Virus genome (UHGV): UHGV-0020097
Length of the DNA: 33,631 nt
Source of the DNA: a virus
Reading direction: 5' to 3' (one strand)
The number at the start of each line of letters is the position of its first letter. Position 1 is the first letter of the stretch. A model generated the notes under the pieces. The model ran no database searches. It had not been told where the DNA came from and was given only the letters and a program-made list of their open reading frames with translations. Of this stretch, positions 9,572 through 10,309 are shown one piece after another. Both the position numbers and the translations under genes were made by a program.

Positions 9572-9938
9572 AGCCGGTCAGGCGTATCTGGGGTGGGATG
9601 ATGTCCTTTATCGCCAGACGCTGGCCCGCCTGACCGGTAAAACCAGCACCACACGCTGCAACCTCGATGAACTGCGCATCATCCGGGAATACATGCATGA
9701 ACAGGGATTTCCGCGCAAGGCACCCGCCGGTAAAGGTCGCCGCCCCCGTGTTGCAATGAGCAGAAAATCGATATTATCCAAAATTGAAGCGTTGCTGGCT
9801 GATGCCGGTCGTTCCTGGGCGTATGCGGAAGGACTGGCATCTCACATGTATAAGCAACATGTGATCGAATGGCTGACGGATGAACAGCTTTTTGGGGTGA
9901 TGGTGGCGCTGGTTAAAGATTCAAGGAGACGTAAATGA
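9543..9938 (+). CDS. gemA: GemA-like regulatory protein
   Basis: 131 aa from ATG 9543; MLKKMIGAIKAGQAYLGWDDVLYRQTLARLTGKTS matches the GemA/DUF1018 pattern as recalled; sits before mor as in Mu. Confidence 0.7.
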   Translation: MLKKMIGAIKAGQAYLGWDDVLYRQTLARLTGKTSTTRCNLDELRIIREYMHEQGFPRKAPAGKGRRPRVAMSRKSILSKIEALLADAGRSWAYAEGLASHMYKQHVIEWLTDEQLFGVMVALVKDSRRRK

Positions 9939-10273
9939 AAAAACTGTTATTACTTATTCTGGCTTTATGTTTTACAGGGATATCCCATGCTTCTGATTCA
10001 GAGGAAGATTTGATCAAAAAAACATTACAGGGCGATTATCAGGCACAACGTAATCTGGCTTATTCATACATGAATGGCTGGGATGATATTTCAAAGGATA
10101 TCATCAGAGGATGCGCTCTCAGGAAGGTTATTCTCTTGACACAAGCCAAAGCTGACATTGGCGATTATGGAAATGAAGCCATAGATTGCCGAAAAGTGCA
10201 TCCAACAGATAACCAGAAAGTATGGGAATATGTCAGAGGATACCTGGTGTTGATAAACGAGAATAAAAAATAA
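9935..10273 (+). CDS. Exported protein of unknown function (moron)
   Basis: 112 aa; N-terminus MKKLLLLILALCFTGISHA followed by SDSEE looks like a cleavable signal peptide; gene is AT-rich and followed by a terminator. Confidence 0.6.
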   Translation: MKKLLLLILALCFTGISHASDSEEDLIKKTLQGDYQAQRNLAYSYMNGWDDISKDIIRGCALRKVILLTQAKADIGDYGNEAIDCRKVHPTDNQKVWEYVRGYLVLINENKK

Positions 10274-10280
10274 TATGAAC

Positions 10281-10309
10281 AAAAACCTTCGCAGGCGCGG
10301 AGGTTTTTT
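10281..10309 (+). terminator. Rho-independent terminator-like hairpin flanked by A5 and T6
   Basis: AAAAACCTTCGCAGGCGCGGAGGTTTTTT: 7-bp stem with one G-U pair, 4-nt loop, T-run downstream; symmetric flanks allow bidirectional function. Confidence 0.55.

Follow-up and report, generated by a model that had tools for sequence, protein, structure and literature searches.

Morons are single small genes that are present or absent between genes adjacent in related phages, deviate in base composition from their surroundings and carry a promoter and a terminator of their own, and in Pseudomonas Mu-like phages 'regions of genomic plasticity' have been described, in which a fixed site holds different genes in different phages (PMC4378225, citing Juhala/Hendrix). 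In phage Mu itself, gemA (8233-8784) overlaps mor (8781-9170), and there is no gene between them. The present work concerns a stretch of viral DNA of 33,631 nucleotides, UHGV-0020097 (the window, by which we mean the whole stretch), which from its gene content is a Mu-like prophage and in which an open reading frame (ORF) on the plus strand, at 9935-10273, separates gemA from mor. An initial annotation of the window took this ORF for a moron encoding an exported protein, and noted, rightly, that it has no counterpart in Mu. We describe its product as a mini Sel1-like-repeat (SLR) protein of 112 amino acids, which belongs to phrog_5882 and is probably an exported accessory protein of a temperate phage. 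The kind of gene is in itself ordinary; what takes it beyond the routine is the breadth of its family, its fixed address in the phage genome, and the fact that it resides in a slot with interchangeable cargo, where each cargo has a signal peptide and two cysteines.

The gene between gemA and mor and its product

The ORF at 9935-10273 is a real gene under purifying selection. Its product matches phrog_5882 over the full length (E 1.7e-56, with residues 1-112 on profile positions 1-114), and a profile search finds 409 homologous clusters (at 50% identity) with E<=1e-3, 120 of them with E<=1e-10, in which certain residues are invariant. The ratio of nonsynonymous to synonymous substitution rates (dN/dS) is 0.15-0.35 for the SLR gene and 0.06-0.08 for gemA and mor. 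The ORF is small and unannotated, and these two properties are all that speaks for a chance or decaying reading frame in AT-rich filler between gemA and mor. Such a frame was rejected on account of the PHROG match, the 409 clusters, the dN/dS values and the confident structure prediction described below, and we regard its probability as practically negligible. The gene is nevertheless AT-rich, as the initial annotation had it: its GC content is 0.378, with values of 0.37-0.41 in 200-nucleotide windows across the gene and 0.50-0.58 in the flanks, and the related loci have mean GC contents of 0.50-0.53, which amounts to 38% for the gene against about 51% for its surroundings.

The N-terminus of the protein consists of MKKLLLLILALCFTGISHA followed by SDSEED, and rule-based inspection divides it into MKK, the core LLLLILALCFTGI, and SHA, with SD as the first residues after the predicted cut. 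There is, in other words, a positive n-region (KK), a hydrophobic core of 13 residues, S-H-A at positions -3 to -1 with small residues at -3 and -1, and an acidic mature end, which together are the properties of a Sec signal peptide cleaved by signal peptidase I (SPase I), here predicted to comprise residues 1-19 (9935-9991, plus strand). In the AF2 model, computed with ten homologues, scores below 50 in the predicted local distance difference test (pLDDT) coincide exactly with residues 1-19, beyond which they exceed 90. A hydrophobic N-terminus of varying sequence is kept in 11 of 11 close homologues, and a strongly hydrophobic N-terminal segment occurs in 140 of 159 family members. The Sec signal and the acidic mature N-terminus that had been claimed for the product are thus borne out by the inspection of the n-, h- and c-regions, by the pLDDT pattern and by the hydrophobic N-termini throughout the family, and we infer that the protein is exported. 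A lipobox-like motif is present in 51 of the 159 members, but the 112-residue protein lacks the pattern [LVI][ASTVI][GAS]C, since it reads L-A-L-C with L at position -1 of the cysteine, and a lipoprotein reading, with cleavage by SPase II, was rejected.

The mature domain (9992-10270) has 93 residues, a mass of 10.7 kDa and a pI of 5.75. It is modelled as five helices with pLDDT above 90, the mean for the whole protein being 85.5. The initial annotation had proposed both a homology search and a structure search of this domain; the former gave the full-length phrog_5882 match and the family of 409 clusters, and in the latter, made with Foldseek against the PDB, the top matches were solely SLR proteins (c5321/EsiB, an Oxalobacter Sel1 protein, AlgK and LceB), on which the predicted alpha/alpha repeat fold can be superposed. 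From this agreement follows that the mature protein would be a minimal SLR protein of about two repeat units. The model, in short, shows an all-helical domain of 93 residues with about two Sel1-like repeats. Residues of the SLR consensus (AQ.NLG/A..Y..G ... D...A..W) are present; the first unit can be aligned with one of the repeats in the Sel1 protein 6OK3, and the second is degenerate. A tandem array of at least three repeats, which is typical of SLR proteins and not obligatory for them, is absent, the five helices making up about two units and a capping helix. At the level of sequence profiles the likeness is faint: weak Sel1 matches occur in only 6 of 30 relatives, in a profile search of PDB sequences a Sel1 repeat protein comes up with low significance, NCBIfam gives no match for the 112-residue protein, and a viral fold library returns weak Sel1/TPR matches from giant viruses alone, which are uninformative.

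Over 159 members the family has the signature A..GDYQAQRN.A...CAWR..I...D..N....C..L, in which the two cysteines are conserved to 99% and 98%. In the window protein these are Cys60 and Cys85, close to where helix 3 begins and helix 4 ends, and in the model helices 3 and 4 are antiparallel neighbours. Because of the position of the cysteine pair and the presence of an export signal, a periplasmic disulfide is pointed to, and a bond between Cys60 and Cys85 is probable. The SLR domain is C-terminal in 135 of the 159 members. In longer relatives of 250-420 residues (P0025, P0028, P0032, P0037, P0041, P0046, P0061 and P0083) it is found behind other domains, which in some are a lipoprotein domain with the motif GH.C....GGG..PG....K..C...C and in others a cytoplasmic zinc-ribbon with a transmembrane segment. 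A literature search found no paper on the SLR gene or on the phrog_5882 family, which is, then, already catalogued yet undescribed in the literature searched; its breadth and its fixed position have been worked out here.

Distribution and variability of the slot

To see how constant the interval between gemA and mor is within one phage lineage, consider the 58 of 5,426 complete E. coli genomes scanned that carry the gemA-mor backbone at more than 96% identity. The slot holds the 112-residue SLR gene in 13 of them (represented by L001 and L004), is empty in about 18 (L002), holds an unrelated gene for 159 amino acids in about 22 (L003 2039-2518 and L007 2039-2515, and including enteropathogenic E. 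coli E2348/69, where the gene is E2348C_RS14200), and holds a third gene, for 174 amino acids (phrog_19473), in 5 (L006 2088-2612, from E. coli M8), where the counts take in clonal duplicates and the classes were assigned mostly by match span, with one or two representatives of each inspected, so that the numbers are qualitative. Lysogens whose ORF is 100% identical to that of the window include STEC313/316 and B1172. The SLR gene is, in this comparison of genome sequences, lacking in 45 of the 58 related prophages, which shows it to be dispensable in the lineage and the slot to be polymorphic. The empty allele has a longer gemA tail and a different hairpin before the same run of T residues and the same mor promoter, and the alleles with other cargo likewise differ in gemA tail and hairpin; the variation looks like mosaic replacement more than simple insertion or deletion.

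Both alternative cargos start with Sec-type signal peptides, MMKKWLFCLVGVIFSCSALA before QT and VKSKIINSIIIGSLLLSTPVFA before DW, and each has two cysteines in its mature part. The 159-residue cargo belongs to a narrow, enterobacterial family and has no sequence relation to the SLR protein, and searches of PDB sequences with the alternative cargos found nothing. A distant homologue of this cargo (pairwise E 2e-6) occupies the same slot in the Pasteurellaceae phage SuMu (L060 ~3906-4448); it has a signal peptide, and both of its cysteines align with those of the 159-residue cargo. The deposited start of the SuMu ORF looks wrong, and its label 'COG3023/AmpD-like', which is without Pfam support, was rejected in favour of this distant homology.

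Pattern scans of viral and genome collections found relatives of the SLR gene in 40 loci, of which the narrow patterns applied to the genome collections gave only 3; for a broader view of the taxonomy, the genomic context of 8 relatives was looked up. The order gemA-SLR-mor is found in 39 of the 39 loci that retain the upstream flank, both in Escherichia/Citrobacter-type and in Pasteurellaceae phages, the fortieth (L044) being cut before gemA. Most of the 40 loci are of Pasteurellaceae type, with named records from Rodentibacter and Haemophilus, and Mannheimia phage 3927AP2 has the same order. The identity of Pasteurellaceae-type proteins to those of the window is 40-49% for SLR, 27-39% for GemA and 32-40% for Mor. 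When the window is compared with a Citrobacter-type locus (L012), the nucleotide identity is 88.7% for the SLR gene, 87.5% for gemA and 88.2% for mor, and from this equality follows that the gene has long travelled with the backbone.

Four of the eight distant relatives (Sideroxydans, Mariprofundus, Chromobacterium and one metagenomic genome) belong to Mu-like prophages with the order GemA-Mor-SLR and gaps of 11-33 nucleotides, followed by a terminator hairpin and by (holin)-endolysin genes. Two more come from Mu-like prophages whose early operon is inverted, and there the gene comes right after the repressor gene, with which it shares the strand; of the remaining two, one is taken up below and the context of the other is not clear. 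The main carriers are Mu-like transposable prophages of Gamma-, Beta- and Zetaproteobacteria. From the 48 loci looked at, the usual address of the gene there would be the far end of the early region, shortly ahead of the lysis genes. In the Chromobacterium-type and metagenomic prophages the gene is again AT-rich compared with its own phage, with GC contents of 0.46 against 0.62 and 0.49 against 0.67. Among 50,697 deposited phage genomes, tblastn, including queries with distant members, found the family only in Mannheimia phage 3927AP2 and Rhizobium phage RR1-A, the window protein as query finding the Mannheimia phage alone, and megablast of the 1.5-kb region gave no match. In RR1-A, a 53-kb myovirus-like phage, a member of 139 residues (L059 4854-5273, RHXG_00016) stands alone on the opposite strand between tail genes, which is a textbook moron placement outside a Mu-like context.

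What, then, becomes of the moron claim? Its part concerning an accessory cargo of deviant composition, absent from Mu and from most of the E. coli relatives, stands, while the gene is neither a one-off nor a recent arrival, with 409 clusters and synteny across families. The initial annotation had named conservation as a core gene as an observation that would speak against its proposal, and half of this was found, in that the gene has the same position in Pasteurellaceae Mu-like phages and lies at the boundary between early and lysis regions in Mu-like prophages of Beta- and Zetaproteobacteria, yet it is not core. By these comparisons the SLR gene is an old, widely shared accessory gene of its phage group, and neither a recent moron nor a core gene.

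Other insertions were seen near the gene. Several Pasteurellaceae Mu-like phages (L005 3429-4055, L016, L019, L027, L031, L032, L042 and L043) have 0.7-1.1 kb of additional DNA separating mor from the SLR gene, and the extra segment of the Mannheimia phage encodes a 130-residue protein (phrog_18666) and an XRE-type helix-turn-helix protein (phrog_7950, 'transcriptional repressor'); from such extra cargo follows that the interval is a wider hotspot. In a Mu-like prophage of Herbaspirillum lusitanum (L054 6245-7081), the SLR gene and the holin gene flank a gene for an SRAP-domain protein, of a family of abasic-site sensors, and the called genes overlap by about 100 nucleotides. In the Mu-like early region of Sideroxydans lithotrophicus (CP001965; L049 296-2064), genes for a bAvd protein and a reverse transcriptase (RVT_1) are adjacent, which suggests a diversity-generating retroelement inside a transposable phage.

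Transcription of the slot gene

The ATG of the SLR gene (9935-9937) overlaps the TGA of gemA (9936-9938) as ATGA, a ribosome-binding site AAGGAG can be read at 9923-9928, six nucleotides before the ATG and within the gemA coding region, a consensus scan of the plus strand between 9213 and 10316 finds no sigma-70-like site, and the first strong terminator is found downstream of the gene. Because of these four properties taken together, the SLR gene would be the last cistron of the early operon and not, as the initial annotation held, a transcription unit of its own. Its translation may be coupled to that of gemA, and the protein would be made from the early (Pe-type) transcript at induction or infection, and not constitutively from the repressed prophage.

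The intrinsic terminator (10281-10309, plus strand) consists of A5 (10281-85), a GC-rich stem CCTTCGC/GCGGAGG of 7 bp with the loop AGGC (10286-10303), and T6 (10304-09). Its folding energy is -15.8 kcal/mol (z = -4.9), and none of 200 shuffled sequences is as stable, so that the A5-hairpin-T6 element described earlier is real in the terms of such a calculation. It was found by a custom ranking of hairpins followed by T-runs; a standard scan missed the site, where the A5 and T6 flanks pair and absorb the T-run. By the same ranking there are only two strong sites on the plus strand between 900 and 13000, with T-runs at 10304 and 10830. That a strong terminator follows the gene is thus confirmed, but as a terminator of this gene in particular it is ambiguous: the empty allele and that with the 174-residue cargo have a different hairpin at the same place, before the same T-run and mor promoter, and in the window no strong terminator of the early unit comes ahead of this hairpin. 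A terminator hairpin also follows the SLR gene in the distant Mu-like prophages. On the simplest reading, the hairpin at 10281-10309 would end an early operon of about 9 kb.

Behind this terminator the TATAAT promoter that had been proposed for mor is found as a putative sigma-70-like element, TGTACA-16-TATAAT (10316-10343, plus strand), which agrees with the consensus at 10 of 12 positions and is identical in 5 of 5 aligned alleles, whatever their cargo. The mor gene (10373-10840, plus strand), which forms the downstream border of the slot, encodes an activator of the Mor/C family (Pfam Mor, E 1.1e-6; phrog_836, E 1.2e-42), and near its 3' end it contains a strong hairpin with T5 (stem 10814-10829, T-run at 10830). 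With promoter-like element, ORF and internal terminator, mor looks like a monocistronic unit. It is the only Mor/C-family gene before the lysis genes in the window, and Pasteurellaceae Mu-like phages likewise have a single gene of this family there (PMC4553209). In three distant Mu-like prophages a conserved dyad, GCGGAA.C.CTTCCGCC, is seen after the SLR terminator and before the holin/endolysin genes (L049 ~6385-6410, L051 ~6395-6420 and L055 ~6430-6450), and it is a candidate for a Mor-type activator site at the lysis promoter.

The backbone around the slot is that of a Mu-like phage. A CI-type repressor gene on the minus strand (409-1071) is followed by genes for a Mu-type transposase A (1461-3503) and a B ATPase (3522-4415), and the window also encodes DUF3164, DUF2786/DUF7168 and Ead/Ea22-like proteins. 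The gemA gene (gp16 family; 9543-9938, plus strand) is recognized by Pfam GemA with E 2e-18, and the equivalent ORF in L001 and L004 is labelled gp16 family protein in RefSeq. Downstream of mor there are a gene for 95 amino acids (10868-11155) and, from 11284 to 12551, two holin genes and a GH108 endolysin gene, the first holin gene beginning at 11284. Two long GC-rich palindromic hairpins, at 11174-11202 (13 bp) and 9243-9270 (12 bp), are terminator-like on the minus strand only; the former, between the 95-residue gene and the first holin gene, could be an operator of the late promoter or a bidirectional stop.

Possible functions and comparison with known systems

SLR domains generally act by binding a partner. 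The explanation that we consider probable for the locus as a whole is that an optional slot, at the last cistron of the early operon, holds the gene of an exported, disulfide-bonded SLR protein which binds a partner in the periplasm. The protein would be exported, be oxidised to its disulfide-bonded form and act in the periplasm, where it may bind either a conserved component of the envelope or periplasm or a component of an incoming phage, and the alternative cargos of the slot would be its functional analogues. Only tentatively do we propose that this binding serves to exclude superinfecting phages or to protect the envelope, in the lytic cycle and perhaps in lysogeny as well. In its widest form, which we think doubtful, the idea would be that Mu-like phages across Proteobacteria reserve the gemA-mor slot, or elsewhere the last place in the early operon, for one of several interchangeable 'periplasmic effectors', which are disulfide-bonded exported proteins. 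The SLR family would then be the commonest cargo and a new class of phage-encoded binders in the periplasm, which block some conserved step either in the working of the envelope or in the DNA entry of incoming phages.

Part of the evidence agrees with a classical moron and lysogenic conversion, that is, with a gene transcribed independently from the repressed prophage and conferring serum resistance, host interaction, exclusion or some other trait of the surface or periplasm. The deviant composition, here and in the Chromobacterium-type and metagenomic prophages, and the polymorphism of presence and absence are those of a moron; the Mannheimia phage has an annotated terminator on either side of the gene; two Mu-like prophages carry it behind a repressor gene of the same orientation, where expression in the lysogen is plausible; RR1-A has it as a lone antisense gene within the tail module; and roles in host interaction have been described for c5321/EsiB and LpnE, two exported SLR proteins among the top fold matches. 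For the window such a moron is unlikely, considering that the consensus scan shows no promoter-like plus-strand site from 9213 to 10316, that the ATG overlaps the stop codon of gemA, that the gene and its flanks have diverged to the same extent, and that the position is kept across two bacterial families, which argues against a recent insertion. A location one to a few genes upstream of holin and endolysin genes, in the window and in most of the Mu-like prophages examined, could instead mean a periplasmic accessory factor with which the phage tunes its lysis, for instance one that holds back endolysin or holin or that prepares the wall. This we hold to be improbable: a terminator and a promoter region stand between the SLR gene and the lysis genes, to which the window adds mor and the 95-residue gene, the family co-occurs with unrelated endolysins (GH108, M15, SLT, GH19 and VanY-like), the same type of lysis cassette occurs with the slot empty, and in other phages the gene is found behind the repressor gene or in the tail module. 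A partner specific to an endolysin was rejected because at least five endolysin types co-occur.

The autonomy of the family, which can be antisense in RR1-A, linked to a repressor gene, combined with varied endolysins or replaced by other exported proteins, favours a self-contained envelope-directed activity over a role in the phage's own lysis. The product might also be an orphan immunity protein, a periplasmic SLR protein neutralising an incoming toxin that acts in the periplasm (a type VI effector or a bacteriocin) and so protecting the lysogen. Its periplasmic location, small size and accessory distribution would suit this role, and there is a weak Foldseek match to the SLR-type immunity protein PA5087 (5jkp, probability 0.35). 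Generic SLR proteins, however, give much stronger matches, none of the examined loci has effector or secretion genes nearby, and a tight tie to Mu-like phages and to the early operon is unexpected for immunity genes, which makes this the most improbable of the functions considered.

Several observations weigh against the periplasmic partner binder made from the early operon, which we prefer, or lessen its force. The assignment to the SLR proteins comes from a predicted structure, with a Pfam Sel1 (PF08238) score below the gathering value (15.8 against 30.7 bits, E 0.022, residues 36-59). The signal peptide was predicted by rules and not by a dedicated predictor, and the disulfide is judged from the conservation of the cysteines and the helix positions. 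The polymorphism of the slot is described by qualitative counts. One of the eight distant relatives stands in an ordinary chromosomal context, and the family is thus not strictly phage-bound. A promoter in gemA, unlike the sigma-70 consensus and invisible to a consensus scan, is possible. Pasteurellaceae phages have a terminator hairpin between gemA and the SLR gene, about 20 nucleotides before the ATG, with a ribosome-binding site alone after it, and there the expression of the gene would need read-through or an unrecognised promoter. As regards the function itself, PADLOC gives no match at E<=0.1 for the SLR protein or the two alternative cargos, Pfam gives no match, and no functional hint, for the N-terminal domains fused to the SLR domain in the longer relatives, and no evidence points to one binding partner.

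The gene is nevertheless a reasonable lead for studies of phage exclusion or of the envelope. Small exported prophage proteins often govern superinfection by other phages and cell-surface behaviour in a host; the SLR family is large and unstudied, has a confidently predicted fold and keeps to one address in Mu-like phages from many bacteria; and there are natural controls among sequenced E. coli, in which the same prophage has the slot empty or filled with a different exported protein. If the slot is a general site for periplasmic effectors, this would help to annotate hundreds of hypothetical genes of transposable phages; otherwise, the gene is a routine accessory gene.

How does the locus compare with what is already described? 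The exported SLR proteins c5321/EsiB (4BWR), Legionella LpnE (6DEH), Pseudomonas AlgK (3E4B) and the periplasmic domain of Vibrio SflA (6IF6) have many repeats and 131-467 residues, whereas the window protein has about two units in 93 residues, is below the Pfam Sel1 threshold, is phage-borne and belongs to a family with its own conserved cysteine pair and D..N motif. The catalogue entry that it matches over its full length, phrog_5882 (PHROGs v4), is without function, fold or context.

T4 Sp, T5 Llp and Ltp of Streptococcus phage TP-J34 are extracytoplasmic phage exclusion proteins. They offer an analogy, in that they are small phage proteins which are active outside the cytoplasm, or else are made early or in the lysogen, and block superinfection, as the SLR protein might. 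The transposable phage Fc02, moreover, carries exclusion genes in its regulatory region (PMC9936078). With the exclusion proteins of T4, T5, TP-J34 and Fc02 no relationship of sequence or structure was found.

With morons and with the plasticity regions of Pseudomonas Mu-like phages (PMC4378225), the locus has in common that one small gene is inserted in some phages, and missing in others, between two genes that adjoin in relatives (as in the empty allele L002 and in Mu; 45 of the E. coli prophages lack the SLR gene), that the composition of the gene deviates (GC 0.378 against about 0.51) and that a terminator comes after it. With the plasticity regions it also shares a plastic site whose place is fixed and whose gene varies from phage to phage. 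Unlike morons, the SLR gene lacks a promoter of its own detectable by the consensus scan, appears translationally coupled to the upstream core gene, and is old and syntenic across bacterial families. Phage Mu closes its early region with the same backbone genes in this order; there, however, gemA and mor overlap and are co-transcribed, whereas here it is the slot gene that overlaps gemA, and mor stands behind a terminator with a promoter-like element and a terminator of its own.

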